Of a stretch of DNA of 49,023 nucleotides, positions 4,833-22,478 are shown one piece after another (position 1 is the first letter of the stretch; each line of letters opens with the position of its first letter). Origin of the DNA: Caldisericota bacterium (GTDB lineage: Bacteria > Caldisericota > Caldisericia > Caldisericales > Caldisericaceae); contig JAYELD010000015.1 in NCBI GenBank assembly GCA_034717215.1, forward strand, positions 1-49,023, given 5' to 3'. The translations under genes were made by a program, and so were the position numbers. The notes beneath the pieces are model-generated. The model was not told where the DNA came from. It saw only the letters and a list, made by a program, of their open reading frames with translations, and made no database searches.

Positions 4833-5327
4833 ATGATTACAGTGGCAATTATTATAACAAGTGATACAAGAAGCACGGGAATAAAAAGGGAAGAAACGGT
4901 TCCTATATTAAGCAAGTTTTTTGCAAGTCAGGGTTGGGAGCTTGTAGATGCTTGTGTAATTCCTGACGAATATGAAAAAATCAAGGATAAGATAGTTTAT
5001 TATGCAGATCAGCTGGGGGTAGATTTAATTTTAACGAGTGGAGGAACTGGTTTTTCAAAAAGAGATGTTACTCCAGAGGCGACTAGAGCTGTTATCGAAA
5101 AAGAGACTCCAGGATTTTCAGAAATAATTAGATTGGAATCTTTCAAACCAACAAAAAAAGCTATTTTATCAAGAGCTATAGCAGGAATTCGGGGCACTAC
5201 CCTCATAATAAATCTTCCGGGGAATCCACAGGGTGCAATAGATTCATTAAATATCATTAAAGAAGCTATCCCCCATGGTATAGATATTATCAAAGGAAAA
5301 GGCGAACCACATACTAAACACGAATAA
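4833..5327 (+). CDS. moaB: Molybdenum cofactor biosynthesis protein, MoaB/MogA family
   Basis: 164 aa with LILTSGGTGFSKRDVTPEAT and a PGNP motif, characteristic of the MoCF_biosynth domain. Confidence 0.85.
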   Translation: MITVAIIITSDTRSTGIKREETVPILSKFFASQGWELVDACVIPDEYEKIKDKIVYYADQLGVDLILTSGGTGFSKRDVTPEATRAVIEKETPGFSEIIRLESFKPTKKAILSRAIAGIRGTTLIINLPGNPQGAIDSLNIIKEAIPHGIDIIKGKGEPHTKHE

Positions 5328-6383: not shown

Positions 6384-6595
6384 ACTGTTAGTGTATTGAG
6401 TATTAGTGAATAGTCAATAATTTATAGTTACCAATATGATACTTTATTTGATAAAACTTTAATTCAAATTTATTTAGATTGCGAAAAACGTTTTTTAGTA
6501 AAATGTCTTATAAGTAGCGGTACCTTTGAGATTACTCTATTTGGCGTTTAAAGCATGATCAGGCAATTTTGCTTTTGCATTACTGTGTCATATTT

Positions 6596-7435
6596 TCAAT
6601 TGCTCTTCTTTGCCTGTTCAGAGAGGTGTGCATATATAGAGGTAGTTTTTGGATTCTTATGGCCCAATAACTTTTGCATCGTTAAAATATCCGCTTTGTT
6701 TTGCATGAGAAGGACCGCAAATGTATGTCTAAGCGTATGTGGTGAAGTTTTTTTATCTATTCCTGCATTTTTGGCTCTTCTCTTGATAATGGCATATATC
6801 TCTATCTTGCTTAATCGTGTGCCTCTGTTTGATATAAACAGTGCATTACTATGTGTATGCACTTCTCTCCACTGCATATATGACTGTAGCGTGTTTTTCA
6901 GCGCTTTGTCTATTGGAATCTCTCGCTTGTTTTTACCTTTTTCTGCTATGTTCATTCTGCCAGATTTGAGGTTTACATCGTTTATATCCAGATTATAAAG
7001 CTCAGATGGTTTTATTCCTGTAAAAAGAAGCATGTCGATAATAGCTTTATCTCTAATTTTTTTGCAAGCATTTCTTAGTTTCATAACCTCATTGTTAGAA
7101 AGGTAGACAGGAACTTTTTTTGGTTGTTGTAGGGAAGAAGGAATGTCAAAATTTATGTTGTGTTCTTTTGTAATCCATTTACCAAAGGCTTTTAAAACAT
7201 ATACAATTTGTGCTTTTGAATTTTTGTTCCACCGCTCTTTCTCTATAAACTTATAAACAGAATCTTTGTTAGGAATATTAAAATCTTTCAAGAATTCTCG
7301 AAGTATCCATTCTCTATTTTGTATCGTGTGGTATGAATAACCTTTCTTGGAAATATGAGAAAGGTAACCCCTAATAAAGCTCTCTTTATTTTTTATGAAT
7401 TTTTTTGAATCTAATTTCATTTCTTTTTTATCCAT
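6596..7435 (-). CDS. Tyrosine recombinase / phage-integrase family (Xer-like size)
   Basis: Box II HTLRHTFAVLL, LLGH and the nucleophile Tyr in TSIYAHL. Box I reads TGIKPSEL, with Lys where the first catalytic Arg is expected. N-terminal SAM-like core-binding domain. Confidence 0.85.
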   Translation of the reverse strand: MDKKEMKLDSKKFIKNKESFIRGYLSHISKKGYSYHTIQNREWILREFLKDFNIPNKDSVYKFIEKERWNKNSKAQIVYVLKAFGKWITKEHNINFDIPSSLQQPKKVPVYLSNNEVMKLRNACKKIRDKAIIDMLLFTGIKPSELYNLDINDVNLKSGRMNIAEKGKNKREIPIDKALKNTLQSYMQWREVHTHSNALFISNRGTRLSKIEIYAIIKRRAKNAGIDKKTSPHTLRHTFAVLLMQNKADILTMQKLLGHKNPKTTSIYAHLSEQAKKSN

Positions 7436-7487
7436 ATCAGATACCTATTATTTATAATACGCAATTTGAGTAAATTTTAAAAAAGAA

Positions 7488-7515
7488 TTGACTTATGCAA
7501 AATTATGGTTATAAT
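7488..7515 (+). promoter_or_regulatory. Sigma70-like promoter of the phd-like operon
   Basis: TTGACT (7488-7493), 16-nt spacer, TATAAT (7510-7515). Flanked by a direct repeat TTATGCA (7493-7499 and 7527-7533) that could be an operator. Confidence 0.55.
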
Positions 7516-7544
7516 TGTTACTATATTTATGCATAGGAGGCGAA

Positions 7545-7754
7545 ATGTTAAAAGCGATCAATGCAACAGAGGGAAAAAAGAAATTTCTCGAGCTTCTGGA
7601 TAGTTGTAAAGAACAACCCTTTCTCATTATACGAAAAGGGAAACCAACTGCAGTCTTGATGGATAGCGGGCTGTACGAATCAATTATGGAAACGATTAAA
7701 TTTTATGCATATCCTGAAATTGCTAAAGAAATTAAAGAATGGAAGAAAAGATAA
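7545..7754 (+). CDS. Phd/YefM-family antitoxin-like protein
   Basis: The 69-aa protein MLKAINATEGKKKFLELLDSCKEQPFLIIRKGKPTAVLMDSGLYESIMETI fits the Phd/YefM N-terminal fold pattern. GGAGG lies 6 nt upstream of ATG 7545, so the longer ORF-track start at 7515 is unlikely. Confidence 0.7.
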   Translation: MLKAINATEGKKKFLELLDSCKEQPFLIIRKGKPTAVLMDSGLYESIMETIKFYAYPEIAKEIKEWKKR

Positions 7755-8332
7755 ATCTTCTAACCGAGAACTCAATAATTACCTTTAAAAATGACGGAAT
7801 TATACTTTCTTCCTACGGAAAGGAGCTATCTTATTTTAAATATGCGGATATCCAAACGCCATATTTTTCACTAATTATCCTCGCAGGGAGAGAGAGAAAT
7901 TTAAAGAGAGTAAAAAAAATTATCACAACCTATTCTGCACTTTCCGTGATTAGAGAGGTAATTATTGTTGGAAATAAAAGTCAGTCAACTGATGTAATTG
8001 CAGAGCTGTCAAATGTAAAATTTACAAAAAATGAAAAACCAAATGACCCTATTTCTGTGTCAGTAAAAAAAGGAATTTGCCTCTTAAGTAATCATTCTGA
8101 ATTTAACGTTATTGTCTTTGCAAATAGAAAAATTCTATCTGAAAAAAAAATGAATAAATTTATGCACATAGTGCATTCACAAAATATAGGTGTTGCAGTA
8201 CTAGTTGAAAAAGGAAAAAGAACGCATCCTATTATCTTTAGTACAAAGGCACTTCAAAAGATAAGGAAAGTACGAAAAGAACAGGGTATACGATATTTCA
8301 TAAAAAAATTTTCTAGGGAGGTAGCGTTATGA
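7739..8332 (+). CDS. MobA/MocA-like NTP-transferase-fold protein with degenerate active-site motifs
   Basis: Collinear by eye with MobA/MocA: IILAG..., VIIVGN, GVAVLVEKGKRTHPIIFS. The LAGGxxxRMG loop reads LAGRERNLKRV and the (C)D(T/Q)P Asp position reads FANRKI. Extra ~40-aa N-terminus. Overlaps the phd-like gene by 16 nt. Confidence 0.5.
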   Translation: MEEKINLLTENSIITFKNDGIILSSYGKELSYFKYADIQTPYFSLIILAGRERNLKRVKKIITTYSALSVIREVIIVGNKSQSTDVIAELSNVKFTKNEKPNDPISVSVKKGICLLSNHSEFNVIVFANRKILSEKKMNKFMHIVHSQNIGVAVLVEKGKRTHPIIFSTKALQKIRKVRKEQGIRYFIKKFSREVAL

Positions 8333-9231
8333 AAAAATTGGCAATGATTATGATGGCAATATTATTTATCTTTACAGCAGGATGTAAAACTTCGGTCGAA
8401 ACACTTAATATTGCGGTGGAATTAAACGACCATGCTGCATCTGCATATATTGCAAAGGATAGGGACGATTTTAACAAGTATGGTATTGAGGTAGATTTAT
8501 TTGAACAGTATGATACAGGGATGGCTCTTGCTGCGGCTCTTGCTAGAGGAGATATCAATGTCGGATATATTTGCGTTATTCCCGCTATTATTTCATACTC
8601 GCGTGGAGTTCCAATAAAAATTGTTTCTCTTACACACCAATACGGCTATGAACTTGTATCAAAGCAAGGAATAAAGAGCGTACAAGAGCTCGATGGAAAA
8701 AAAGTTGCATGCCCTAAAGAAGGAAGCAGTGCAAACTTTGTTATGAAACTTGTGGAAGAACAATATGATATAAAATTTAATGTACTGGGGACAAAGCCTC
8801 TTGTTGCAATGTCTGCTTTGAGTAATGGTTCTGTAGATGCTGTGTTTATTCCCGAGCATTATGCTTCAATACTTGTTTCACAAGGATTCAAAATACTTCT
8901 TCGCGCTCAAGATGTTTTTCCTGAGATGCCCGGAAGTTGTATTGTTGTAAAAAATGATATCATCGAAACAAAACCTGTAGTTGTAAAAGAACTTGTAAAA
9001 TTGAATATCGCAGAAACAAACTTTATCAATAAAAATCAGAACGAAGCAGCAAAGATTCTTTCTGGATACCTCAATACTGATGAGATTATTATTGAAAACT
9101 CTATGAAGAATATTGCTTATACAAATAGTTTAAATGTAGCAAATATTCAGTTTGTGATAGACAAACTTGCTGACTGGGGTTATATTGACAAACGATTTAA
9201 CGCAGAGGATGCTATATGGGCAGGAAATTAA
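8329..9231 (+). CDS. ABC transporter substrate-binding lipoprotein, NMT1/SsuA/TauA-like (NitT/TauT family)
   Basis: Lipoprotein signal MKKLAMIMMAILFIFTAGC. Sequence pattern of type 2 binding proteins of the nitrate/sulfonate/taurine family. ATGA overlap with the upstream gene. Confidence 0.7.
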   Translation: MKKLAMIMMAILFIFTAGCKTSVETLNIAVELNDHAASAYIAKDRDDFNKYGIEVDLFEQYDTGMALAAALARGDINVGYICVIPAIISYSRGVPIKIVSLTHQYGYELVSKQGIKSVQELDGKKVACPKEGSSANFVMKLVEEQYDIKFNVLGTKPLVAMSALSNGSVDAVFIPEHYASILVSQGFKILLRAQDVFPEMPGSCIVVKNDIIETKPVVVKELVKLNIAETNFINKNQNEAAKILSGYLNTDEIIIENSMKNIAYTNSLNVANIQFVIDKLADWGYIDKRFNAEDAIWAGN

Positions 9232-9953
9232 ATAGTTTACTGCCCATTGCTCTTTTTTTGCTTATATGGGAGCTTGTAGGAAGGCTTCCGGCTGTTCCTA
9301 CATACCTTTTTCCGCCGTTTAGTAGTGTTATTGTTAAACTCTTCACGGTCAAAGGTTTATTGCTTGAAAATATCTTTTTTACTCTATTCCGGGTTGCACT
9401 AGGGTTTGTTATTGGCACAGTAAGTGGTATTACAATTGGCTTATTTGCCGGCATTAACGAAAAGGTAAATCAATTTATGACTCCGATTGTTTCGATTATA
9501 TACCCTATCCCATCTATTGGTTGGATACCCGTGCTTATGATATGGTTTGGCATATCAAACAGTGTGCCAATTATTGCTATTTTTATTTGTTCCTTTTTTC
9601 CTATCTTTCTTAACACAGTAAGAGGCGTAAAGGATATTGATCAAAGTATAATTTATGCGGCAAAAACAATGGGAACTTCAAAAACTTGTCTTATAAGAAA
9701 AATTATTCTACCGCTTGCTCTGCCGAATATTTTTACAGGATTAAAGCTTGAAAGTGGAATGGCTATAAGAACGGGAGTTGTTGCGGAAATGCTAGCAATA
9801 CCGTCTGGTTTAGGATATCTCCTGATGAAAGGAGAATCTTTAATTGATACACAACTTATATTTGTTGTTCTTATTGCAATGGGTATTATCTCTTTTGTTA
9901 CCGATTATATAATACGAAAGGTAGAGGTAAAACTTCTCACATGGAAGGCTTAA
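9216..9953 (+). CDS. ABC transporter permease, SsuC/TauC-type
   Basis: 245 aa with about 6 TM segments. Conserved stretches FRVALGFVIGTVSGITIGL, IPVLMIWFG and the LPLALPNIFTGLKLESGMA EAA-type loop. Confidence 0.85.
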   Translation: MGRKLNSLLPIALFLLIWELVGRLPAVPTYLFPPFSSVIVKLFTVKGLLLENIFFTLFRVALGFVIGTVSGITIGLFAGINEKVNQFMTPIVSIIYPIPSIGWIPVLMIWFGISNSVPIIAIFICSFFPIFLNTVRGVKDIDQSIIYAAKTMGTSKTCLIRKIILPLALPNIFTGLKLESGMAIRTGVVAEMLAIPSGLGYLLMKGESLIDTQLIFVVLIAMGIISFVTDYIIRKVEVKLLTWKA

Positions 9954-10945
9954 AGATAAAGTCAGTTTCAGTAGGTATTCTTAAAAATATTTCATTTATT
10001 CTTGAAAAGGGCAAAGTCGGCGTTTTACTTGGGTCCAATGGTGCTGGCAAAACTACGCTTCTCAATGCAATAAGTGGTATAATACCCGTGAAAAATGGAC
10101 ATATCTACCTCAACGGCAAGGAAATTACACCTGTACCAATCGAAGAAAGAGATATAAGCTATATATTTCAAAATCTGGCATTGTTTCCACATCTTACAGT
10201 CTACGAAAATATTGCGTTTCCTCTACACATTAAGAAGGAAGAAAATATCGACAAGAAGGTGTTAAAGATTTTAAAAAAAGTAGATATTCTTGCGCTCAAA
10301 GATAGATATCCATTAAGACTCAGCGGGGGTGAAAAACAAAAGGTGGCAATTGCTAGGGCCCTTGTAACAAATCCTGAATTACTTTTATTAGATGAACCAT
10401 TTGCAAGTCTTGATTTTGAAATGAGAAAATTTATAAGAGCTGAATTTTTAAAAGTAATCAAGGAATTTTCACTGACAACTCTTATTGTAACACATGATCC
10501 GTATGAAGCAGAAGAACTGGGAAACAATATAATAAAAATAAGACAGGGCAAACTTGTTCACACTGGTAATGACGTAAACAGGATTAAAGTGAGGTCGCTT
10601 AAAAAAGTAACAAAGGATATTGCTCTTGCTGAATTTGATAATTTTTCTCTCATTGTGCCGTTCAGTTCAGAGAAGAGCGATGATTATTACGTAGAATTTT
10701 TGGAAGAGGATCTTTACATTTCTTCATTGAAACCACCAATTCCAACGCTCAATACTCTGCGAGGAAAAATTATTTCTCATAAGGAAAGCGCAGAAAGGGT
10801 GCATGTGAAAATAGACATAAATGAGACAATAATTAAAGGAAATATACCATGGTATATGTGGCATGAGATAGATAAAGATGATGTCTATGTAATTATTAAA
10901 TATAGAGGCACAAAATTGAAAGGAGTGAATAATGGCGGTTTATGA
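9941..10945 (+). CDS. ABC transporter ATP-binding protein with a C-terminal TOBE-like extension
   Basis: Walker A GSNGAGKTT, signature LSGGEKQKVAIARAL, Walker B LLLLDEPFASLD, H-loop VTHD. Roughly 110 extra C-terminal residues (LRGKIISHKESAERVHVKIDINETIIKGNI...VYVIIKYRGTKL) resemble ModC/CysA-type TOBE OB-folds. Confidence 0.8.
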   Translation: MEGLKIKSVSVGILKNISFILEKGKVGVLLGSNGAGKTTLLNAISGIIPVKNGHIYLNGKEITPVPIEERDISYIFQNLALFPHLTVYENIAFPLHIKKEENIDKKVLKILKKVDILALKDRYPLRLSGGEKQKVAIARALVTNPELLLLDEPFASLDFEMRKFIRAEFLKVIKEFSLTTLIVTHDPYEAEELGNNIIKIRQGKLVHTGNDVNRIKVRSLKKVTKDIALAEFDNFSLIVPFSSEKSDDYYVEFLEEDLYISSLKPPIPTLNTLRGKIISHKESAERVHVKIDINETIIKGNIPWYMWHEIDKDDVYVIIKYRGTKLKGVNNGGL

Positions 10946-11657
10946 TATATTAACAATGGAATTTGAAAGAATAGCTAAAGAAAATAATTTGCTGAACGAG
11001 AGTGTCGTAATAAAAGCTGCTCCCCTTACTGCTGAAGAGGCAATAGGGGATCCTACAGATAAGGATTATCCTATAATAAAAGGTCAAGAAAAATTAATGG
11101 AAGCCCATTTTAGAGGCGCAAGAGGGCAAGCATTTACAGACTTTTATGGCAATTTTACAGGAACGATTCAAGATGTATTAGATCTTGATCTACGTACAAA
11201 TTATCAAAGAGCGATATTCGTTTCTACACTTAATGCAATATTGGATTACCTGAAACTGACAGATAAAACAATACATTGTAAAAATGACGAACCACGAGAG
11301 TGTGCCGAAAATGCTGTGGATTTTATAAAAAGAAAATTTGGCAATCCAAAAATTTTTCTTATTGGCTATCAACCTCGTTTTGCAGAAACTTTTTCAAAAC
11401 ATTTCCACTTGAGAATTGTTGATTTAGATAACGAAATGGTTGGAAAGAAGGTAAACGGAGTGCTGATCGAAGTTGAAGAGAGCACCAGTAGAAATATTGA
11501 ATGGGCTGATCTCCTCTGGATAACCGGGACAACTGTTGTAAATAATACAATTGAGCAATTTTTAAATGTAAAAAAGGATAAAGTATTTTACGGGACAACA
11601 ATAGCAGGCGCTGCTTATATCCTTAACCTCAAAAGATTTTGTTCATTAGCAAAATAA
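10932..11657 (+). CDS. DUF364-family Rossmann-like protein (putative heavy-metal chelation domain)
   Basis: The C-terminal half (KIFLIGYQP...ADLLWITGTTVVNNTIEQFL...VFYGTTIAG) matches the DUF364 pattern (aDvviiTGstlvNgT). 14-nt overlap with the ATPase gene. Confidence 0.6.
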   Translation: MAVYDILTMEFERIAKENNLLNESVVIKAAPLTAEEAIGDPTDKDYPIIKGQEKLMEAHFRGARGQAFTDFYGNFTGTIQDVLDLDLRTNYQRAIFVSTLNAILDYLKLTDKTIHCKNDEPRECAENAVDFIKRKFGNPKIFLIGYQPRFAETFSKHFHLRIVDLDNEMVGKKVNGVLIEVEESTSRNIEWADLLWITGTTVVNNTIEQFLNVKKDKVFYGTTIAGAAYILNLKRFCSLAK

Positions 11658-11687
11658 ATTCATAATTTTTTCACAATTTGGTATATA

Positions 11688-13160
11688 ATGAATAATATGG
11701 GAAAAATTAAATTTTTTGATGGTACCGACACAATTGGCGGCACAAAAATACTGTTAGAGATTTCTAAGAAGAGGTTTTTCCTCGATTTTGGTTTGAATTA
11801 TAATAGGCGAGGGATGTTTTTTGAGGAGTATCTGAATCCCCGTCCTGCAAATGGAATGGGGGATCTTTACTTTTTAGGACTTCTTCCTTCCATAAAGGGA
11901 ATATATAGAAAGGATCTTCTACAATTCATTCAACGAGAAGGTATTAAAGAGTTAGGCGATGGCAGTGAGCCTCCATTTGTGGACGGTGTATTTCTTAGCC
12001 ATGTTCATTTTGACCATTCTGGGTACATTACATTTCTTCGTGAAGATATTCCAATTTACACATCAAAAATTACCATTTCTTTATTAAAGGCAATTGAAGA
12101 TACATCTAATACACAGTTTGAAACATCCATTTTTAAGTTTATACGGCGTCCTGCAACCGGAAGCCATAAAGACCCACTTTATTATGGCACACATAAAGCC
12201 AATGCTATTTACGGAGAGGAAAAAATTAATGGAGTTAATGTTACAGCGTGTCCCGTTGATCATTCTGTTCCTGGTGCAATGGGTTTCATTATTAAGAGTG
12301 AGGAGAAAACCATTGTTTATACAGGTGATTTGAGGCTTCATGGCAAAACACGAGCTGACACGGAACAATTTGTTAGACAAGCAAGAGAAGCACATCCCGA
12401 TATATTAATTATCGAGGGCACAAATTTACGCGCTTATAATGATGATGAAACGCGAGAATTCTGGACTGAACAACGCGTTTTTGAAGAAGCACAAAAAGAG
12501 ATTCATAATAGAAAAAAACTTGTTATTGTGGATTTTCCTTTCAAGAATATTTATCGGTTCCTCACTTTTTATGAACTTGCCAAATCAAGTGGGCGGAAGT
12601 TTGTTATTTCTTTAAAAGATGCTTATTTTATGGATGCAATGAAAAATGTTGGTATGCCTGTTCCTTCTCTTTCTGATCCGAATATTTATCTTTACCTTGA
12701 AAAAAAAAGAAGTGGGACTTACGACAAAAAAGATTATTCAAGCAGTTGGATGAAAAATATATTAGGAAAAGTAGATGCAAGCCGGATTATAACAGCAAAA
12801 GAAATTAGGGCAAATGAAAATAATTTTATGCTTATATTGCGTTATTTTAATTTTCAACAACTTGTTGATATACGTCCGACAAACGGCAGTATTTATATTC
12901 ATTCGGCATCTGAGGCGCACTCGGAAGAACAGGAAATTGATGAACAGAGGATGGACAACTGGCTTAAGTATTTTAATCTTTACCCACGAATTCATATTCA
13001 CGCATCAGGTCACGCGAAAAAGGATGATTTATTTAATATAGTATCAGAAATTAATCCAAAGACGATTATTCCCGTTCACACTGAACATGCAGAAGAATAC
13101 GAAGAACAGTTTGGGAATAAAGTAAAAATCGTTAAAAACGGAGATACAATAAAGTTTTAG
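11688..13160 (+). CDS. Metallo-beta-lactamase fold / beta-CASP ribonuclease (RNase J-like)
   Basis: HxHxDH motif (LSHVHFDHSG), N-terminal GTDTIGGTKILLE, and a C-terminal HASGHA...IIPVHTEH beta-CASP-type motif. Confidence 0.6.
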   Translation: MNNMGKIKFFDGTDTIGGTKILLEISKKRFFLDFGLNYNRRGMFFEEYLNPRPANGMGDLYFLGLLPSIKGIYRKDLLQFIQREGIKELGDGSEPPFVDGVFLSHVHFDHSGYITFLREDIPIYTSKITISLLKAIEDTSNTQFETSIFKFIRRPATGSHKDPLYYGTHKANAIYGEEKINGVNVTACPVDHSVPGAMGFIIKSEEKTIVYTGDLRLHGKTRADTEQFVRQAREAHPDILIIEGTNLRAYNDDETREFWTEQRVFEEAQKEIHNRKKLVIVDFPFKNIYRFLTFYELAKSSGRKFVISLKDAYFMDAMKNVGMPVPSLSDPNIYLYLEKKRSGTYDKKDYSSSWMKNILGKVDASRIITAKEIRANENNFMLILRYFNFQQLVDIRPTNGSIYIHSASEAHSEEQEIDEQRMDNWLKYFNLYPRIHIHASGHAKKDDLFNIVSEINPKTIIPVHTEHAEEYEEQFGNKVKIVKNGDTIKF

Positions 13161-13173
13161 GGAGGTAGAAAAT

Positions 13174-14301
13174 ATGGAAGAAATGAGGAGAAGAAACTGG
13201 GTTATAGCGCTCATTATAGGTATTATTATCGGAAGCATTGTTGGCGGCATTTTTGGAACCTACCTTGTGTTTCAGAATCCGACAATCTTTCCATGGGCAC
13301 AGGTTAGTACAACAAATGACCAACAAAAAGAATATATTTTAAGCAGTAATGAAGCCCCATCAATTGAGAATGCTATTGTAAACGTGGTTACTGTAGTTTC
13401 TCCGTCAGTGGTGAGAATTGTGTCTACGAAGGAAGTAATTGATTTTTTCTTTTTGCAGACTACCCCACAACAGGGACTTGGATCTGGTGTTATTATAGAG
13501 TCAGATGGTCTTATATTAACCAACTACCATGTTATAGAGGATGCTGATAAGATTGAGGTAACATTAAGCAGTGGAAAAATATATAAAGGGACAGTGATTG
13601 GAGCAGATCCTATTAGCGATGTTGCATTAGTACAGATTGATGAGAAAAATTTACCTACAGCAAAACTTAGCGATTCAGCAAAGCTTAAAGTAGGACAGTT
13701 CGTTGTAGCAATTGGTAATCCATATGGGTTAGATCATACCGTAACTACAGGAGTGATAAGTGCTCTTGAAAGAAATATTAATATTGGCAGGCAAACAATG
13801 TATGGCATCATTCAAACTGATGCTGCAATTAATCCCGGAAACAGTGGTGGGCCACTAGTAAATCTTGAAGGTGAAGTTGTCGGCATTAATACGCTGATAT
13901 ATAGCCAGGCACAAGGTCTTGGATTTGCAGTATCAACTGATACTTGCAAGAAAGTTATTGATAACATTAAAAAAACCGGCAAAATGGAGTGGCCATACAT
14001 TGGGATAGAGCTTACTACAATGACTGAAGAACTTGCTAACAACGCTAATCTTAAATATGCTCCGGGGATTGTCGTGATTAGAGTAATGCCAGGTAGTCCA
14101 GCAGAAAATGCAGGAATTAAGCAAGGAGATATTATTGTATCAATTGATGGTGTCTCTGTTGATACAACTGATGAGTTTCTAAAAATTGTACGTTCACGCA
14201 ATGCAGGAGATAGCATCATGCTGGAGGTAAAGAGAAAAAATATCAGCGAAGTGATAAAATTAGAGCTCACTCTTTCTGTACAACCACCATTTGCAGAATG
14301 A
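13174..14301 (+). CDS. htrA: HtrA/DegP-family serine protease with one PDZ domain, membrane anchored
   Basis: N-terminal TM helix. Catalytic His (TNYHVI), Asp (SDVALV) and Ser (GNSGGPLVN). C-terminal PDZ (PGSPAENAGIKQGDIIVSIDG). GGAGG SD. Confidence 0.9.
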   Translation: MEEMRRRNWVIALIIGIIIGSIVGGIFGTYLVFQNPTIFPWAQVSTTNDQQKEYILSSNEAPSIENAIVNVVTVVSPSVVRIVSTKEVIDFFFLQTTPQQGLGSGVIIESDGLILTNYHVIEDADKIEVTLSSGKIYKGTVIGADPISDVALVQIDEKNLPTAKLSDSAKLKVGQFVVAIGNPYGLDHTVTTGVISALERNINIGRQTMYGIIQTDAAINPGNSGGPLVNLEGEVVGINTLIYSQAQGLGFAVSTDTCKKVIDNIKKTGKMEWPYIGIELTTMTEELANNANLKYAPGIVVIRVMPGSPAENAGIKQGDIIVSIDGVSVDTTDEFLKIVRSRNAGDSIMLEVKRKNISEVIKLELTLSVQPPFAE

Positions 14302-14348
14302 AGTAGTAGTTAATTGTTTGTAAAAAGGTAAGCACTTCCAAAAAATTT

Positions 14349-16091
14349 TTAAAAGAGCCCTTCTCGCTTTTTAATATACAGTTTTCGTAAAAGATTTGCA
14401 GGAAGCACTCCTGCAAATTGACCCTTTTTGTCTACAACAGCTAAAACATCTGTTTTAAGTTTCTCCATTTGGTGAAGAGCAGTTAAAAGTGAGTCCGATT
14501 CTGGGATAGAAAAATCTTTTACTGTAACAAATTCATCAATTTTTTTGTTATCATCGACACTTAATATATCAATAGTATGCAAGATTCCAACTGGATGTTC
14601 TTCGCCATTTAGAATAGGAATTTTTGCAATTCCTTTCTCTGAGATTATTTTCTTTGCCTGCTTTATATTGTCGCTCAAATATAGATATTCTGCGTCTTTT
14701 ATCATTGCGTTTTTTACTTTAACTGTCGAAAGAACATTAATCTCATGGCCGCTATGTACATGTATTCCACGTCGCATTAGTGGTTCTGAGTACATTGTTT
14801 TTTTATAAAGAAAAGCAACGATAAATCTGCTAGTGATAACGCACAGCATTAATGGAAGGATAATTTCATAGGATCTTGTTAGTTCGTACGCCATCACAAT
14901 AGCCGTAATTACTGCACCGGTAGTTCCTGCAACAACTGCTGCCATGCCTATCAGTGCATAAGCAGCGGGTGGGGCAGTAATGGAAGGGAAAATATTATTA
15001 ACAATAATTCCAAATGCAGCGCCTCCTGCCGTTCCAATGAAAAGGGACGAAGCAAAAATTCCTCCGGATCCTCCGGATCCAAGCGTAAATGATGTCGCAA
15101 TAATTTTTGCAAAAATAAGTGCAAGCAAAATAATGAGTGGAATATTTTCCTGCGTAAGAACACTTGTAATAAATGAATAACCAACGCCGAAAAGATAGTA
15201 GTGTCCCGTCCATTTCATAAAAAACAGACTTAAGATACCTACGATTAGTCCTCCGATGGCAGGCTTAAAATACTTGTTAATTCTTAATCGTTCGAACCAT
15301 ATTTCAAGTTTTGAGAGAGTGTTAGTGAAGATAATGGCTATAAAGCCGCAGAGTATTCCTAAAATTATATACAGAGGAAATTCCCATGAGGAAGCTAAGG
15401 TATAGCCTGGCACAATAAATGCTGGCTCAGTCCCTAAAAAGACTCTTGCAATGTTTGTTGCCACTATTGACGAAATTGCAAGGGGAATAAAGGTTTCAGT
15501 ACTAAACTCTGGCAGTATTAATTCAATTGTAAATAGTATGCCTGCAATAGGGGCATTAAAGGTAGCAGCTATACCTCCGCCTGCACCGGCTCCTACAAGA
15601 ATAATTATATCTCTTGGTTTAAGATGGAATAATTGGCCCAGTGTAGAGCCAAAGCTTGCTCCAATTTGAACAATAGGGCCTTCTCTACCAGCAGAACCTC
15701 CGGAACCTATGCCTATTGCGGTTGCTAGGATTTTTATCAAAGAAACAATAGGTCTTATTTTACCTTCTCTCATAATTACTGCTTCCATAACTTCAGGAAC
15801 ACCATGTCCTTTTACTTCTGGCGAAAACCGCTGTATAAGATACCCGACAATTATCCCACCAATTACCGGTATTATTATTACGTAATTTCCAAACCGGGAA
15901 ACAAAATGCAAATTAGAATCATAAGCTAGTGACAAAGTTCCATTAAAGAACAAATTATGAAAGAACGCAATAAGAGTTCTAAATACAACTGCACCCAGAC
16001 CAGATATTATCCCTACAAGTGCAGAATAAAAAGATATCTTAATAAAATGTTTTGTTTTCTTTTCCTTTGCTCGCATAAAAATTTTTTCCAT
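14349..16091 (-). CDS. ClC-family chloride channel/antiporter with C-terminal CBS pair
   Basis: Selectivity motifs GSGGSAGREGP and GGSGGIFASS, with a CBS-domain tail. Start set at the first ATG (16091, AGGAA upstream), because the ORF-track start at 16118 is a TTG abutting the aor terminator. Confidence 0.85.
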   Translation of the reverse strand: MEKIFMRAKEKKTKHFIKISFYSALVGIISGLGAVVFRTLIAFFHNLFFNGTLSLAYDSNLHFVSRFGNYVIIIPVIGGIIVGYLIQRFSPEVKGHGVPEVMEAVIMREGKIRPIVSLIKILATAIGIGSGGSAGREGPIVQIGASFGSTLGQLFHLKPRDIIILVGAGAGGGIAATFNAPIAGILFTIELILPEFSTETFIPLAISSIVATNIARVFLGTEPAFIVPGYTLASSWEFPLYIILGILCGFIAIIFTNTLSKLEIWFERLRINKYFKPAIGGLIVGILSLFFMKWTGHYYLFGVGYSFITSVLTQENIPLIILLALIFAKIIATSFTLGSGGSGGIFASSLFIGTAGGAAFGIIVNNIFPSITAPPAAYALIGMAAVVAGTTGAVITAIVMAYELTRSYEIILPLMLCVITSRFIVAFLYKKTMYSEPLMRRGIHVHSGHEINVLSTVKVKNAMIKDAEYLYLSDNIKQAKKIISEKGIAKIPILNGEEHPVGILHTIDILSVDDNKKIDEFVTVKDFSIPESDSLLTALHQMEKLKTDVLAVVDKKGQFAGVLPANLLRKLYIKKREGLF

Positions 16092-16175: not shown

Positions 16176-18059
16176 TTATATTGAAGCCCCGGAATCTACT
16201 TCACTGTCTAATCCCAACTTAAATAAACACATCTTAGTGGGTATTCCATTCTTTGACCATCCTCTTACGAGGTAATATTCATCAAGCATGTCTTGAAGTT
16301 CCTTTTCTGTCACATAGTTTCCTTTAGATATTCCGTTTTTAATTGGTTCGTGCGTGACACGGTAAGGAAGAGAATCGTCATTTCGAGTTAGCCCTTCTCT
16401 AACGTTAATAAGTTTTTCGAGATTATAAATCCTTTCGCCGATCGTCATTAATTGGTTTACATCATAATCAATTCCAGTTACAGCCTTTAATCCATCCAGC
16501 GTGCCTTCAAGCCAGAAAAGACCGCGAGAAAATTTACACATGCCAAGCGTATCATAAACAGACATAAAATCTTCTCCTGTTTTTACTTCATATCCCTTCC
16601 ATTCTGTCGAGAGTCTATCAACATTAGTTAATTTCCAGAAACTTCCCGTTAGCTCAGGGACATAAATACCACCGGTAAGGTGACAGGCACCTCTCACAGA
16701 TACAGCTATTGCAAGCGCCATTCCTTTCAGTCCTCTAACATCGTATCCAGGAGGTTCCAACCCTTTGATTTCAAGAGCGAACTTTTCAGAACCTTTCCCC
16801 AATTTTTTTGTTGCCCTTTTTACTCCATCTCCGAGTAATTCTCCGAGTTTCCCCTCTTTTGAGACCAGCTTTTCCATTGCCTGAATAGCTGCGTCTTCAT
16901 TGCCAAAATATAAATCAATGCCGTCCGTATCGTTTTTTGTGAGAATGCCTTTTTCGAATGCTTCCATTGCCCAACCTAATGTAACGCCTGCAGATATACC
17001 GTCTATTCCGGCCCTATCACATATTTCATTGAGTTTTGCGGTAACTTCTATTCTATCTATTCCTAATTCACTGCCTAGAGCATAGAGTAACTCATATTCT
17101 ATTCCTTCGACGCGTGTGCCTGCATATTTACCTTCTTTAATCACAAAGAATCTGCCACATGGCTTCGTGCAATTTGGACATGGATGAAGTTTTTCGGTAT
17201 ATTTTGGGGACCAGTAGTAAGGGTCGAGAGGCGATTTCTCATTTTTATGTTTTTCGAAGCTTTCTTCAAAGATGCTTTCTTGCCAGTTTTTTACAGGAAA
17301 GACACCTCGTTCTTTATTAACCCATTCGTAGAACTCTCCCGAGCCATATGCCATATCCAGTTTTTGTGTTTCCGAGCCGTTGATTTTTTTATTCCAGTTT
17401 GCAATTGCTGTTTTAAGTAAATCTTTATCTGCACAGCCCACATTACCAGTTCCTTTTACTGCAATTGCTTTGAGTAATTTACTTCCCATCACTGCACCGC
17501 CACCGGCTCGCGCTGATTGCCTTTCCTCAAAATCAATACCTGCAAGGAGTGAAAGTTTTTCTCCGGCAGGCCCTATTGCCCCGGTTCTAAAATCTTTGCC
17601 AAGTTTTTCTCTTAGAAAAATTTGTGTTTCTATCGCATCTTTGCCCCATAAATCAGCTGCATCCCTTATTTCTACATTTCCATCTTCTATACAAAGATAT
17701 ACAGGTCTGTTGCTTTTTCCTTTAATCATCATTCCGTCAAATCCGGCTTTTTTAAGTGCAATGCCAAGATAGGCTCCGGCAACACTTCTTCCGAATGCAT
17801 TGGTTGCCGGTGACTTAAATGTAATTGTAGTTTTTGATGCAGTTGAAAGTCCGGTGCCTACTAGCAACCCTGGAACAATAATGAGTGGATTTTCTGGAGA
17901 TAGCGGATCTGTTCCAGGCGCAAGATAATCATAGAGTAATCTTGATGCAATTCCTAAACCACCCAAATACTTTGTGTAAATTTCTTCTGAAAGCAGTATA
18001 GTTGTACTTTTTCCATTGGTTAAGTCAACGAAGAGTATTTTTCCTGTGATTCCTTTCAT
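16176..18059 (-). CDS. aor: Aldehyde:ferredoxin oxidoreductase (tungstopterin AOR family)
   Basis: 627 aa. N-terminus GKILFVDLTNGK...YLGGLGIASRLLY, the 4Fe-4S Cys motif CPNCTKPCGR plus a later MCKF. GGAGG SD. Begins 9 nt after the preceding M42 gene. Confidence 0.9.
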   Translation of the reverse strand: MKGITGKILFVDLTNGKSTTILLSEEIYTKYLGGLGIASRLLYDYLAPGTDPLSPENPLIIVPGLLVGTGLSTASKTTITFKSPATNAFGRSVAGAYLGIALKKAGFDGMMIKGKSNRPVYLCIEDGNVEIRDAADLWGKDAIETQIFLREKLGKDFRTGAIGPAGEKLSLLAGIDFEERQSARAGGGAVMGSKLLKAIAVKGTGNVGCADKDLLKTAIANWNKKINGSETQKLDMAYGSGEFYEWVNKERGVFPVKNWQESIFEESFEKHKNEKSPLDPYYWSPKYTEKLHPCPNCTKPCGRFFVIKEGKYAGTRVEGIEYELLYALGSELGIDRIEVTAKLNEICDRAGIDGISAGVTLGWAMEAFEKGILTKNDTDGIDLYFGNEDAAIQAMEKLVSKEGKLGELLGDGVKRATKKLGKGSEKFALEIKGLEPPGYDVRGLKGMALAIAVSVRGACHLTGGIYVPELTGSFWKLTNVDRLSTEWKGYEVKTGEDFMSVYDTLGMCKFSRGLFWLEGTLDGLKAVTGIDYDVNQLMTIGERIYNLEKLINVREGLTRNDDSLPYRVTHEPIKNGISKGNYVTEKELQDMLDEYYLVRGWSKNGIPTKMCLFKLGLDSEVDSGASI

Positions 18060-18068
18060 TGGTACCTC

Positions 18069-19061
18069 CTATTTTTCTATAAATTTTTTCAAAAGTTTTA
18101 CAGTATTTTCGACATCGGCCATATCAAGTGTTTCACCGGGAGTATGAATATACCGAGTGGAGATGGATACTGCGGCGGATTCTACTCCGGTTTTTGTAAT
18201 TTGTATCGCAGCGGCATCTGTCGAGCCGTCAGTAATAACTTCTAATTGATAAGGTATCTTATTTTTCTTTGCTGTGTCAATTAACAGCGTCCTTATTCTT
18301 TTTGAAGCAATCATTCCTGCGTCCATAATTTTTATAGTAGGGCCTTTTCCAAGAGCAAGTGAAATTGCTGGACTTTCAGGTGTATCCCCCGCGTCTGTTA
18401 CATCCAAAGCAATTCCTATATCCGGAGTGATACCGTAAGAAGATACTTTTGCTCCTTTTATTCCAATTTCTTCCTGCACTGTGAATACCGCATAGAGGTC
18501 ATATTTAATCTTTTTACGCCGCAAATTTTTTAAAAGTTGTATTGCCACAGCACACCCGATTCTATCATCCAGTGCAGGTGCAGTTAGTCTTGTGCCGTTT
18601 TTATAAAAAGAAGGTTTGTATATGCCCTCTGTTCCTATTTGCACAAGTTTTTTTGCGGATGTTCGATCAGTTGCTCCGATGTCAACATAGAATTTCTCTA
18701 ATTTATGGTCCTTCGATTCCCATGGAGATTCTTTATCTTCATAATAAACAAAACCTTCTACTCCTTCTTCAAAAAGAATTTTTTGGCCAACAAGAAGAGA
18801 TTTATGTAGCCCCCCTATGGAGCCAACTCTGAGGAATCCGTTTTTATCGATATTTGTGACCATAACACCAATCTGATCCATATGCGCTGCAAGCATAAGT
18901 GATTCGTTAGGCCCTTTAATATGGCCAACCAGGTTGCCAAAGTTGTCTTCATATACTTCATCGACTTCTTTTGAAATTTCTTCTTTAATAATTTCTTTTA
19001 CGCTGTTTTCTTTTGAGGACGGGCCAAAAGCATAGACTAGTTTTTTAATTAAATTTTCCAT
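18069..19061 (-). CDS. M42-family (TET/FrvX-type) aminopeptidase, paralog 3 of 3
   Basis: Motifs LMLAAHMDQIG, ALDDRIGCA, FTVQEEIGIKGA and YIHTP. AGGAGG SD. Confidence 0.85.
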   Translation of the reverse strand: MENLIKKLVYAFGPSSKENSVKEIIKEEISKEVDEVYEDNFGNLVGHIKGPNESLMLAAHMDQIGVMVTNIDKNGFLRVGSIGGLHKSLLVGQKILFEEGVEGFVYYEDKESPWESKDHKLEKFYVDIGATDRTSAKKLVQIGTEGIYKPSFYKNGTRLTAPALDDRIGCAVAIQLLKNLRRKKIKYDLYAVFTVQEEIGIKGAKVSSYGITPDIGIALDVTDAGDTPESPAISLALGKGPTIKIMDAGMIASKRIRTLLIDTAKKNKIPYQLEVITDGSTDAAAIQITKTGVESAAVSISTRYIHTPGETLDMADVENTVKLLKKFIEK

Positions 19062-19072
19062 AAATGCCTCCT

Positions 19073-20089
19073 TTAAAACTTTTTGAGAAATTTATTCAAC
19101 AGCTTTACTGTGCTTATATAGTCTTTTTTAAAGAACAGAGAGACGGGAGAATGAAGATAGCGTACTGGTACTGCCACAGTTAAAACTTTGACGCCTTTTC
19201 TTGTGGTTTGTATTCTGTACGAATCAGTACCCCCTGCAATAACTTGTTTGAATTGATATGGAATTTTATTTTGTTTTGCAGTTGAGATAAGTTTATTACG
19301 CAATTCATTATCGGTAATTACACCTCTGTCTTTTACCGTGATAACAGGGCCGTGGCCCAATTTACTGCATTTCAAATGATCCGGTACTTCTGGTAAATCA
19401 GCAGAAATGGTTCCTTCAATAGTTATTGAAATATCGGGAGTATATTGGTGGGCTCCTACAGCTGCTCCTCTTAGACCTATTTCTTCCTGTGTCGAAAAAA
19501 GTGCAATGATAGGAACATTGTAGTTTTGTTTAAGAAGATCGACAATAATGGCACACCCAAGCCTGTCATCAAAGGCCTTTCCAATGAATTTACTATCGGT
19601 AATTTCTTCAAATTTGGTATCAAACGCTACAAAACTACCTCTTGGTGCTATACTTTCTGCTTCTTCCATATCTTTTGCGCCTATATCTATATAGAGTTCG
19701 GTAGATTTTATGCTCTTTTCCCGTTCATCTACTTCTTGTAAATGAATAGCCTTTGCCCCAATAACGCCTCTAATTTCTTTTTCTCCGATAAGTACTCTTT
19801 TTCCTAGCAGCACTCGATCATCTATTCCACCTACTTTTTTAAATTGAAGAAATCCATTTTTACTAATGTGATCAATGATTAATCCTACCTCGTCTATATG
19901 GGCATTCAACATTATTTTTGGTCCTTTTTTTTTCATTCCTTTCAGGGCAATAAGATTCCCTAATGGATCAGTCGCTACCTTTTCAACATATTCCTTTATT
20001 TCGCCTCTCAGTATTTCTCTGACTTTTATTTCATCTCCTGAAATACCAGGGGTATTGCTTAGTTTTTCGACAAGTTTAATGCTCTCCAT
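19073..20089 (-). CDS. M42-family aminopeptidase, paralog 2 of 3
   Basis: Motifs LNAHIDEVG, AFDDRLGCA, STQEEIGLRGA and YLHSP. Start moved to ATG 20089 (GGAGG 8 nt upstream). 14-nt overlap with paralog 1. Confidence 0.85.
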   Translation of the reverse strand: MESIKLVEKLSNTPGISGDEIKVREILRGEIKEYVEKVATDPLGNLIALKGMKKKGPKIMLNAHIDEVGLIIDHISKNGFLQFKKVGGIDDRVLLGKRVLIGEKEIRGVIGAKAIHLQEVDEREKSIKSTELYIDIGAKDMEEAESIAPRGSFVAFDTKFEEITDSKFIGKAFDDRLGCAIIVDLLKQNYNVPIIALFSTQEEIGLRGAAVGAHQYTPDISITIEGTISADLPEVPDHLKCSKLGHGPVITVKDRGVITDNELRNKLISTAKQNKIPYQFKQVIAGGTDSYRIQTTRKGVKVLTVAVPVRYLHSPVSLFFKKDYISTVKLLNKFLKKF

Positions 20090-21116: not shown

Positions 21117-21550
21117 AGCACCTCCCATAATTTGATTGAAAATCATCCTGTGCTTGAAATTGACGAGACGGTTGATGCTTATAGCAAGAAGTATATTTTT
21201 GGCTTAATATTATATAATTTTTGCGATTTATCCTTAATATAATTTTAAATATCGTGTCCTTGTTAAGTATAGAAGAAACAGAGATATTTGTTATCATATT
21301 TTATGAAGCAAGAATTTTATTGTTAACTTGCTGTCGTTTATTTTATCCATTTCGTATCCTTTTTTGTCATTTTCTTATTTTAACAAAAGAGAGCAAAAAA
21401 TTCAAATTTATAAAGCTCTTACAGGGTCAGCTTTTGTAAAATAGAATAATTACGAGAATAAACAAATCTGCAAAGAGTGTTGCTTAACTTAATCAAACAT
21501 TTTATTTTTGTAATTTTGTGCAAAGCAGCAATTATTGCGTATTTGAATTT

Positions 21551-22464: not shown

Positions 22465-22478
22465 CTCCTTTTTATATT

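Follow-up and report, generated by a model that had tools for sequence, protein, structure and literature searches.

A translationally coupled six-gene operon of a Caldisericota genome as a candidate route of molybdenum and tungsten import

Operon layout and promoter

We analyzed a stretch of 49,023 nt from a Caldisericota bacterium (Caldisericales; assembly GCA_034717215.1, contig JAYELD010000015.1), hereafter the window, in which six open reading frames (ORFs) of the forward strand lie within positions 7488-11657. They code, in order, for a Phd/YefM-family protein, a MocA-fold protein with degenerate motifs (pseudo-MocA), a substrate-binding lipoprotein, a permease and an ATPase of the ATP-binding cassette (ABC) kind, and a DUF364-family protein. 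An earlier interpretation of the DNA letters (the sequence-only reading) had suggested that these genes form an uptake route for tungsten or molybdenum. Judging from gene context, we put a probability of roughly 0.55 on the operon being an importer of molybdenum or tungsten (Mo/W) that would serve a nearby tungsten-type aldehyde:ferredoxin oxidoreductase (AOR). The cassette probably represents a previously unrecognised Mo/W import route.

All five gene junctions of the operon are overlaps, of 16 nt (7739-7754), 4 nt (8329-8332), 16 nt (9216-9231), 13 nt (9941-9953) and 14 nt (10932-10945), and our ORF calls matched those of the sequence-only reading exactly. Tight junctions recur in orthologous cassettes of other phyla: the binding protein and permease genes overlapped in 28 of 32 cassettes, the permease and ATPase genes overlapped or were 1 nt apart in 37 of 38, and the ATPase and DUF364 genes overlapped in 28 of 44 loci. 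The gene starts of the orthologues were longest-ORF calls, and some of these overlaps are therefore overstated. The ratio of nonsynonymous to synonymous substitution rates (dN/dS) was 0.07-0.25 for all six genes, and purifying selection acts on every one of them. The closest public contig carries a DUF364 protein 90% identical to that of the window.

A sigma-70-type promoter at 7488-7515 of the forward strand (TTGACT, a 16-nt spacer and TATAAT) agrees with the consensus at 11 of 12 positions. It was the top match across 6500-14600; promoter-like sites overall were not enriched in this AT-rich DNA, with 40 found against 32 expected. Conservation is a stronger argument for the promoter than the consensus match, since both hexamers, together with the downstream AGGAGG and ATG, were invariant in six Caldisericota loci with protein identity down to ~60%. 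The near-consensus promoter had been correctly recognized from the sequence alone. The first start codon had not: TTG at 7515 (giving 79 aa) falls within the -10 box, and the gene therefore starts at ATG 7545 (69 aa), with AGGAGG at 7535-7540.

The binding protein and its pocket

The third gene (8329-9231, forward strand) codes for a lipoprotein of 300 aa with the SsuA/TauA (NMT1) fold. It scored 59 bits against PF13379 (NMT1_2) and 127 bits against SsuA_fam (cut-off 163.5); its family matches were limited to NMT1_2, NMT1 and SsuA_fam, and no match to the ModA/WtpA (SBP_bac_11) or TupA (PBP_like_2) families was found. The AlphaFold2 model (pLDDT 93.6) gave Foldseek TM-scores of 0.80 to TauA (6ssy) and 0.81 to SsuA (2x26). 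Together with the adjacent permease (BPD_transp_1, 93 bits), the protein thus belongs to the nitrate/sulfonate/taurine class, as had been proposed. Named homologues were annotated only as NitT/TauT family binding proteins. We observed that the clade is small and discrete: word-index scores fell from 171 to 83 bits, and only 113 of 19,307 NMT1-like representatives reached E <= 1e-30 against the clade profile.

Across 30-34 sequences from several phyla, the residues Glu31, His35, Thr63, Gly64, Cys82, His103, Gly106, Gly132, Glu176, Gly202 and Ser203 were invariant, and Tyr61, Tyr105, Tyr107 and Cys128 were nearly so. Pocket positions were inferred from a HMMER alignment to TauA and the published ligand contacts of the latter (PMC6906117). 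Thr63-Gly64 align with Ser60-Gly61 of TauA and Cys82 with Gly79, positions where main-chain NH groups bind the sulfonate in TauA. Ser134 takes the place of Thr132, which binds sulfonate and amine; Pro175, adjacent to Glu176, that of Trp176, which makes a van der Waals contact; and His35 that of Ser32, which lines the site. Gly202-Ser203 align with Leu204-Asp205, and the amine-binding Asp205 is thus replaced by the invariant Ser203. The second amine-binding residue of TauA, Glu106, is within an insertion that is missing here, and the sulfonate-binding Gln30 corresponds to a variable position.

As aligned, the predicted pocket is one in which the anion-binding scaffold is kept, the taurine-specific residues are dropped, and Cys, His and Glu residues are gained. 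Such a pocket would be compatible with a metal oxy- or thio-anion as well as with a metal cation or chelate, and does not decide between them. The sequence-only reading had called for a look at the predicted structure for an oxyanion pocket; the fold is that of TauA/SsuA and not ModA-like, and the backbone positions that bind the anion are retained.

The permease and the ATPase

The permease (245 aa; 9216-9953, forward strand; PF00528, 93 bits) had SaoP (149 bits), TauC (120 bits) and SsuC (117 bits) as its best NCBIfam matches, each below the cut-off. It scored 29 bits against TIGR02141 ModB (cut-off 182.6) and is not of the ModB type. SaoP is a component of the selenocysteine-assisted organometallic (SAO) system, whose transporter SaoX/SaoP/SaoA is suspected to carry a metal-containing substrate (Haft; bioRxiv 10.1101/2022.07.06.499078). 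The cassette resembles SAO in this best permease match and in having an NMT1-fold lipoprotein with conserved cysteines at cleft positions. It differs in its scores (149 vs 295 bits for SaoP, 61 vs 300 for SaoX and 148 vs 360 for SaoA), in an ATPase that is not SaoA-like and in the lack of CC/CU motifs. No Cys or His is invariant anywhere in the permease family, so a SaoP-like gating selenocysteine or cysteine would be missing (the gating column itself was not aligned). None of the other Sao genes (SaoL, SaoB, SaoT, SaoC, SaoE) was seen among the window ORFs scanned.

The ATPase (334 aa; 9941-10945, forward strand; ABC_tran, 132 bits) has a nucleotide-binding domain of the ModC/WtpC/CysA type in residues 1-211, followed by 123 TOBE-like C-terminal residues (about 10574-10942). 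Its best NCBIfam match was WtpC (212.7 bits, cut-off 440), then came the sulfate and ModC types; TauB reached 138.9 bits. The closest solved structures were all ATPases with C-terminal regulatory domains. We found PF03459 (TOBE) in 9 of 12 orthologous tails (best 3e-9), and a profile of the tails weakly matched Mop/molbindin proteins and ModC 3d31. By these similarities the ATPase is tentatively assigned to the ModC/WtpC lineage.

The window holds a second NitT/TauT-like ABC system (21949-24949, reverse strand), made of a 567-aa fused double permease, a 255-aa ATPase and a 171-aa PF09821 'AAA_assoc_C' protein, with no adjacent binding-protein gene. At least its ATPase and PF09821 genes are kept in the syntenic contigs L004 and L005. 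Its ATPase is of the short SaoA/TauB type (243 bits to SaoA); a NitT/TauT permease coupled to an ATPase of the ModC/WtpC type is thus peculiar to the cassette.

The DUF364 protein

The last gene of the operon (10932-11657, forward strand) codes for a protein of 241 aa that matched PF04016 at 37.8 bits (cut-off 23). A phmmer search against solved structures returned chance matches only, and a fold search was needed: with the AlphaFold2 model (pLDDT 90.6), Foldseek found 3npg and 3l5o as the only significant matches (E from 6.5e-7 to 4e-5, 9-16% identity), and the model has their two-domain fold. The DUF364 assignment made earlier is thereby confirmed.

The protein shares its fold and the adenosyl-binding Rossmann residues with Dhaf4260 (3L5O), PH1506 (3NPG), MMP_RS02675 of Methanococcus maripaludis and the MeAZE synthase Orf5; Gly145, Asp164, Thr198, Asn204 and Thr206 correspond to Gly129, Glu148, Thr174, Asp180 and Thr182 of Dhaf4260. 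On the other hand, its subfamily is distant from the solved structures, has no Pfam DUF4213 match and carries its own invariant residues His115, Cys116, Cys124 and Cys237 (Cys3His). In 13 loci with an NMT1-type transporter a canonical DUF364 paralogue, devoid of these four residues, follows the Cys3His protein, which suggests distinct roles for the two.

The placement of DUF364 genes beside metal ABC transporters was noted in 2010 and again in 2024. The family was linked to Mo, W, V and Fe transporters (PMC2954201), and a modABC-DUF364 operon of M. maripaludis was cofit with nifH (bioRxiv 10.1101/2024.03.05.583561) and was one of two mod clusters that responded to molybdate versus tetrathiomolybdate (PMC11484787). 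The DUF364 protein of the window may be a cytoplasmic partner that handles the imported species.

Gene context across phyla

An alignment of the DUF364 subfamily, scanned against 185,579 species genomes, picked up at least 583 relatives. We examined the best 80 loci and the loci from an exact look-up, 83 after removal of duplicates; the relatives were examined as 20-kb slices, and their ORFs were compared by BLASTP with a reference set. The import module (genes 3 to 6) was present in at least six phyla of anaerobes. An NMT1-type binding protein, a NitT/TauT permease and an ATPase of about 350 aa stood beside DUF364 in 38 of the 83 loci, from Caldisericota, Dehalococcoidia and other Chloroflexota, Thermodesulfobacteriota, Omnitrophota, Auribacterota and ANME-1; in the ANME-1 (Methanophagales) locus L070 the transporter genes were about 5 kb from DUF364. 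Twelve loci had a ModA/ModB-type transporter in that place, two had FecCD/Peripla_BP_2 components with a radical SAM (S-adenosylmethionine) enzyme and a methyltransferase, and 31 had no transporter. The recurrent neighbours of the transporter-less loci looked housekeeping-like by eye (TlyA-, GatCA-, PurF- and PurM-like) and offered no additional clue to function.

In the ModA/ModB class, the binding protein scored above the TIGR01256 modA cut-off in four of five tested loci, and the ATPases were closest to WtpC. For example, the order in Clostridium loci was MoeA-like, ModA, ModB, ATPase, DUF364, MoaB, MoaA, MoaC.

In the NMT1-type class, at least one molybdenum-cofactor (Moco) gene was found within 10 kb in 21 of 38 loci, all confirmed by Pfam or NCBIfam. 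The genes were MoeA-like (9 loci), ModE-N-type regulator (8), genuine MocA (8), YqeB (6), YqeC (6), XdhC (6), xanthine-dehydrogenase-family (5) and AOR (3). The regulator with the ModE N-terminal type of domain lay directly upstream of the binding-protein gene in its eight loci, and the Dehalococcoidales locus L021 had the order AOR, MoeA-like, binding protein, permease, ATPase, DUF364. Overall, the association is with cofactor maturation, in many cases next to xanthine-dehydrogenase-family enzymes. Reciprocal look-ups from four distant binding-protein homologues (31-41% identity) showed DUF364 adjacent in three of the four and an ATPase of 336-355 aa in all four, one with a recorded Pfam TOBE hit.

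The window itself carries two genes of this context, both noticed in the sequence-only reading. A MoaB/Mog-type molybdopterin adenylyltransferase gene (4833-5327, forward strand; PF00994, 103 bits; NF006932, 133.5 bits) lies 2.2 kb upstream of the operon, and an AOR-family gene of the tungsten type (16176-18059, reverse strand; PF01314, 407 bits; PF02730, 234 bits) lies 4.5 kb downstream. The latter enzyme is the probable client in this genome. The absence of a canonical modABC, tupABC or wtpABC set also held: there was no ModA-, TupA- or WtpA-type binding protein among the window ORFs scanned.

Several related arrangements were seen outside the window. In the Dehalococcoidia loci L026, L034, L045, L057, L058 and L063 (e.g., L057:6063-13819) a single island had the order MocA, ModE-N-like regulator, NMT1-type cassette, two tandem DUF364 paralogues (the Cys3His type, then the canonical DUF4213+DUF364 type), YqeB, YqeC and XdhC; YqeB and YqeC, here in Dehalococcoidia, are signature genes for selenium-dependent molybdenum hydroxylases. 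The type II importer MolBCA, which carries molybdate and tungstate, is of the FecCD/Peripla_BP_2 class. Importers of this class stood with the DUF364 subfamily, a 578-aa radical SAM protein and a UbiE-type methyltransferase on a metagenome contig (L006:590-10726) and in an ANME-1 locus (L082). Small Nitro_FeMo-Co (PF02579) proteins, one of them fused to a cation-efflux dimerisation domain, were encoded near the cassette at L088:11617-13299 and L090:14341-16618, and ParA/CbiA-4Fe-4S ATPases were found near the Nitro_FeMo-Co genes of loci anchored on the binding protein.

The Phd/YefM-like and pseudo-MocA pair

The first gene (7545-7754, forward strand) codes for a Phd/YefM-family protein of 69 aa, with 42 bits to PF02604 (PhdYeFM_antitox; cut-off 29.8) over profile positions 2-68 of 74 and 27.5 bits to TIGR01552; its dN/dS was 0.13-0.15. 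It is probably the DNA-binding regulator of the operon. The second gene (7739-8332, forward strand) codes for a protein of 197 aa with the MocA/MobA fold, matched by NTP_transf_3 (37 bits) in residues 66-190 only.

The second protein scored 50 bits against TIGR03310 (MocA; cut-off 186.45), compared to 195.6 bits for the genuine MocA copies of related loci, which carry the motifs 'LLAAGxSKRMGxxK' and 'DQP'. We take the acidic 'DxP' motif of MocA to be the Mg2+ binder. In the window protein 'ILAGRERNLKR' replaces 'LLAAGxSKRMG' and 'NRK' replaces 'DQP'; the stretch aligned against the genuine 'LLAAGxSKRMGxxK' reads ILAGRERNLKRVKK. With a score below the cut-off and neither 'LAAGxSxRMG' nor 'DxP' intact, the protein does not qualify as a MocA, and the name pseudo-MocA is apt. 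Thirteen residues are deleted and 44 lineage-specific residues are added at the N-terminus; towards the C-terminus the protein still has the '(K/R)xHPxxF' region of the MocA fold. Its gene is not a decaying pseudogene, given a dN/dS of 0.18-0.25.

A word-index search with pseudo-MocA found just eight close relatives; the Dehalococcoidia relatives came from clustering of the locus ORFs. The two genes overlapped upstream of the cassette in all five Caldisericota loci that have them. In five Dehalococcoidia loci (L026:5297-6127, L038:6269-7075, L051:1470-2300, L056:2518-3438 and L058:552-1382) a Phd-like gene overlapped a gene for a 276-aa MocA-like protein directly upstream of the cassette. Thus the pair was found in two phyla and upstream of this cassette only. 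In the 276-aa proteins 'SKRMG' has given way to 'ADY..', and 'DQP' has lost its Asp and reads S/N-R-P; they carry an N-terminal domain of ~85 residues whose sole match among solved structures, a marginal one (E = 0.013), was E. coli RelE. The alignment spans nearly the full length of RelE and, as read, stops short of its C-terminal catalytic residues; a Pfam search with this extension matched no toxin family. We know of no description of a fusion of a RelE-like domain to a degenerate MocA.

In the window, the partner of the Phd/YefM-like protein had no detectable toxin domain of the Doc, YoeB or RelE families, and we do not ascribe one to pseudo-MocA. A comparison with known systems shows both sides of the pair. 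As in YefM-YoeB and Phd-Doc modules, a Phd/YefM-fold first gene overlaps that of its partner, and the Dehalococcoidia partners have the RelE/YoeB-like domain; as in MocA, the partner has the MocA/MobA fold. Unlike in those modules, the partner is a MocA fold with degenerate nucleoside triphosphate (NTP) and Mg2+ motifs and not a recognised toxin, and the pair is tied to one transporter operon. Both identities given in the sequence-only reading, an antitoxin-fold protein and a MobA/MocA-fold protein with degenerate catalytic motifs, were borne out, and we would recast the two as one conserved, translationally coupled and probably regulatory pair. By sequence they look like a YefM/YoeB-like toxin-antitoxin module turned regulator, with the dead MocA domain as sensor.

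If so, the Phd/YefM-like protein would act as a DNA-binding repressor, its partner would be a MocA-fold pseudoenzyme without NTP and Mg2+ motifs that retains '(K/R)xHPxxF', and the pair would tune transcription from the single conserved promoter by cofactor or metal status. An imperfect 21-nt inverted repeat (7494-7535; arms 76% complementary) spans the -10 box and the likely transcription start. It is a weak candidate operator for the Phd/YefM-like protein and may have arisen by chance in AT-rich DNA. No Moco riboswitch was found in the window, where the sole Rfam match was one tRNA.

We consider it unlikely that the two genes are not regulators at all. They could form a working toxin-antitoxin pair that shares the promoter, in line with the Phd/YefM fold, the overlap typical of such modules and the RelE-like domain of the Dehalococcoidia copies; still, the RelE match is marginal and ends before the catalytic residues, and the window copy has no toxin-like domain. 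Or pseudo-MocA could be a nucleotide-independent factor that assembles or holds the bis-(W/Mo)-pyranopterin cofactor for the AOR-family enzyme, a family to which YdhV presumably belongs. MobA forms the bis-molybdopterin molybdenum cofactor (bis-Mo-MPT) besides adding nucleotides, and the cofactor of YdhV carries no nucleotide (PMC9103625). The retained '(K/R)xHPxxF' region would fit such a factor; a coupled DNA-binding antitoxin partner would, however, be needless for it. The restriction of the pair to the upstream side of this cassette in two phyla speaks against either variant.

Transcript end, neighbouring genes and mobility

No terminator-like site was seen between the DUF364 gene and the next two genes of the same strand, and the first terminator-like hairpin (an 11-pair stem followed by a T run; 14393-14419, forward strand) comes after the second of them. 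The transcript may therefore hold eight genes. The seventh (11688-13160, forward strand, after a 30-nt gap) codes for a metallo-beta-lactamase (MBL)/beta-CASP protein of 490 aa, RNase J-like (PF12706, PF07521). It follows DUF364 in most Caldisericota loci (L008, L010-L016, L018), not in L017 and not in other phyla; it is probably co-transcribed as a lineage-specific neighbour rather than a member of the module. The eighth (13174-14301, forward strand, after a 13-nt gap) codes for an HtrA-type protease with a PDZ domain, trypsin and PDZ being annotated in syntenic loci, and is probably the last gene of the transcript. Of the earlier claim of one transcript with coupled translation, the coupling and the conserved promoter stand, and the six-gene extent may have to be enlarged.

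On the other side of the operon lies a divergent gene for an Xer-like tyrosine recombinase (6596-7435, reverse strand; XerA_Arch 205.6 bits, cut-off 220; XerD 166 bits). It had raised the possibility that the cassette is mobile, a candidate explanation that we rejected. The GC content was uniform across the region (0.30-0.37), with no composition shift; no att-like flanking repeats were found around the cassette; the order DUF364, MBL, HtrA was conserved across Caldisericota; and the recombinase was missing from that position in the more distant relatives L014 and L016.

Among other genes of the window, the AOR gene has three tandem M42-family peptidase genes (18069-21146, reverse strand) immediately downstream on its own strand, and M42 peptidase and DUF401 genes also occur close to the cassette in L090 and L091, two unrelated loci. 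A 337-aa protein (26548-27561), which matches the reductive-dehalogenase family weakly (PF13486, 25 bits) and has a 4Fe-4S dicluster domain, could be QueG/RdhA-like. A gene for a NurA-domain nuclease (379 aa) is immediately upstream of thiI on the same strand (33768-36010, reverse strand).

Discussion

To our knowledge, the recognised high-affinity Mo/W importers are ModABC, WtpABC, TupABC and the type II importer MolBCA. With ModABC and WtpABC the cassette shares the design of a binding-protein-dependent type I importer, an ATPase closest to WtpC/ModC with a C-terminal TOBE-like region, and an equal operon slot beside the same DUF364 subfamily, among MoeA, MoaABC and ModE-like genes. It differs in the SsuA/TauA (NMT1) fold of the binding protein, which is not SBP_bac_11 or PBP_like_2, in the NitT/TauT type of the permease and in the invariant Cys and His of the pocket. 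In the literature searched, no connection between Mo or W and a binding protein of the NMT1/TauT type was found.

Three lines of evidence lead us to read the operon as an Mo/W importer: the DUF364 subfamily adjoins the NMT1-type transporter in 38 loci and a genuine ModA/ModB transporter in 12, cofactor genes accompany 21 of the 38 NMT1-type loci, and the ATPase appears to be of the ModC/WtpC lineage, with a TOBE-like tail. Under this reading the lipoprotein would capture the substrate outside the cell, a dimer of the NitT/TauT-type permease would translocate it, and the ModC/WtpC-type ATPase would power transport. The TOBE-like domain would probably shut the pump when the anion builds up in the cytoplasm, as in the trans-inhibition of ModC. 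The Cys3His DUF364 protein would act on the imported species or hold it in the cytoplasm, and hand it over towards MoeA-type metal insertion. The likeliest substrate would be tungstate, molybdate or both, or the thio-forms of these. The AOR-family enzyme encoded downstream would be the main client in this Caldisericota genome, with MoaB encoded upstream.

A number of observations weigh against this reading or its parts. The binding protein is nearest to sulfonate/taurine binders by both fold and sequence, and a metal cation or chelate would fit equally well in its invariant Cys/His/Glu pocket; in the known Mo/W binding proteins the ligand is bound by hydrogen-bond donors or carboxylates and not by Cys/His. 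The ModC/CysA-like TOBE tail, posited in the sequence-only reading and supported by the orthologous tails and the WtpC-like nucleotide-binding domain, is too divergent in the window for Pfam, with no TOBE match at E <= 1. In 17 of the 38 NMT1-type loci no cofactor gene was found in the stretch examined, many of the contigs being short, and some of the loci anchored on the binding protein adjoin Feo, cation-efflux and Nitro_FeMo-Co genes and not Moco genes. The sequence-only reading had proposed a neighbourhood survey for co-occurrence with AOR-family genes. Co-occurrence was seen for Moco genes at large, and AOR itself was near just 3 of 38 loci; gene context supports the proposed Mo/W uptake route in its general form, and the AOR-specific link is thin. 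The sole enzymatically characterised DUF364 member cyclises methylated SAM in secondary metabolism (PMC12930334). As to the regulatory pair, hhalign found no similarity between the 44-residue N-terminus of the window pseudo-MocA and the RelE-like domain, and the outer half-sites of the inverted repeat were not conserved in orthologues.

An alternative that we hold to be rather unlikely, and the best placed of those for the import module, is that the cassette imports another metal or a metal chelate (Fe, Ni, Co, Zn or a metallophore complex), with DUF364 as an enzyme that uses SAM to make or process a chelator resembling nicotianamine. The formation of an azetidine ring from a SAM derivative is chemistry in common with nicotianamine synthase. 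The adenosyl-binding residues are retained in DUF364, the subfamily has further partners in FecCD/Peripla_BP_2 importers together with a radical SAM enzyme and a methyltransferase, and some loci stand beside FeoAB, cation-efflux and Nitro_FeMo-Co genes. The conserved Cys82, Cys128, His35, His103, Glu31 and Glu176 of the pocket would fit a metal ligand, an NMT1-fold protein was crystallised with zinc (3un6), and the first characterised DUF364 enzyme forms just such a ring (PMC12930334). On the other hand, the ModA-type partners of the same subfamily bind bare oxyanions and not chelates, neither an exporter nor further biosynthetic genes belong to the cassette, the ATPase and its TOBE-like tail resemble those of oxyanion importers (ModC/CysA), and Moco maturation is the dominant context.

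It appears improbable that the cassette is an ordinary NitT/TauT importer, for an organic sulfonate, taurine, a thiamine or pyrimidine precursor, or nitrate/bicarbonate, whose proximity to cofactor genes is coincidental. The cassette does share with TauABC and SsuABC the fold of the binding protein (SsuA and TauA being its best matches in sequence and structure, at a TM-score of about 0.8 in the latter), the permease family (closest to SaoP, TauC and SsuC), the anion-binding (S/T)-G, here Thr-Gly, at a helix N-terminus and the main-chain ligand positions. ThiN or Thiamine_BP genes lie a few kb away in L090 and L091, loci anchored on the binding protein. However, all family scores were under the curated cut-offs, the binding proteins form a discrete clade (171 to 83 bits; 113 of 19,307 representatives), and the amine-binding Glu106 and Asp205 of TauA are not conserved. 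The ATPase is of another lineage, with a TOBE-like tail in a 123-residue C-terminal domain, and not of the short TauB/SsuB/NrtD type. The linkage to DUF364 and Moco genes recurs in several phyla, a context of Mo/W cofactor rather than sulfur assimilation, and no genes of sulfonate or thiamine utilisation accompany the Caldisericota or Dehalococcoidia cassettes.

Least likely of all, the cassette could supply a chalcogen (a Se or S species) for the labile Se/S ligand of molybdenum hydroxylases and not the metal, as the six Dehalococcoidia islands with YqeB, YqeC, XdhC and MocA and the Cys-rich pocket and DUF364 might suggest, but the Caldisericota loci, the window included, lack YqeB and YqeC, in Clostridium loci the partners of the DUF364 subfamily are ModA and MoaABC, and a ModE-like regulator lies directly upstream of the binding-protein gene in eight loci.

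We would entertain, as a speculative and on present evidence doubtful elaboration of the Mo/W reading, that the binding protein is a receptor for thiometallates (tetrathio- or oxythio-tungstate or -molybdate). Its Cys3His DUF364 partner would be a cytoplasmic acceptor that strips or exchanges sulfur ligands before MoeA insertion, and the operon would be under a toxin-antitoxin-derived pair whose dead MocA domain detects the completed cofactor and so does as a protein what the Moco riboswitch does as an RNA. Thiometallates are soluble forms of W and Mo in sulfidic water. If this were true, the cassette would be the first dedicated thiometallate uptake route, and its confinement to strict anaerobes of sulfidic habitats (Caldisericota, Dehalococcoidia, Desulfobacterota, ANME-1, Omnitrophota, Auribacterota) would be explained. 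According to a 2024 study (PMC11484787), molybdate had until then been the sole known bioavailable form of Mo.

If the Mo/W import reading is true, there would be a further class of Mo/W importers, which combines a ModC-type ATPase with a binding protein and a permease of the sulfonate type and would alter the scoring of Mo/W use in genomes of uncultured anaerobes. The link of DUF364 to metal transporters has been known since 2010 with no mechanism proposed, and there is now a testable hypothesis for this family. The Phd/pseudo-MocA pair, if it is a regulator, would be a toxin-antitoxin module turned metabolic sensor. The finding bears on the acquisition of Mo and W by anaerobes in settings where thiometallates dominate.

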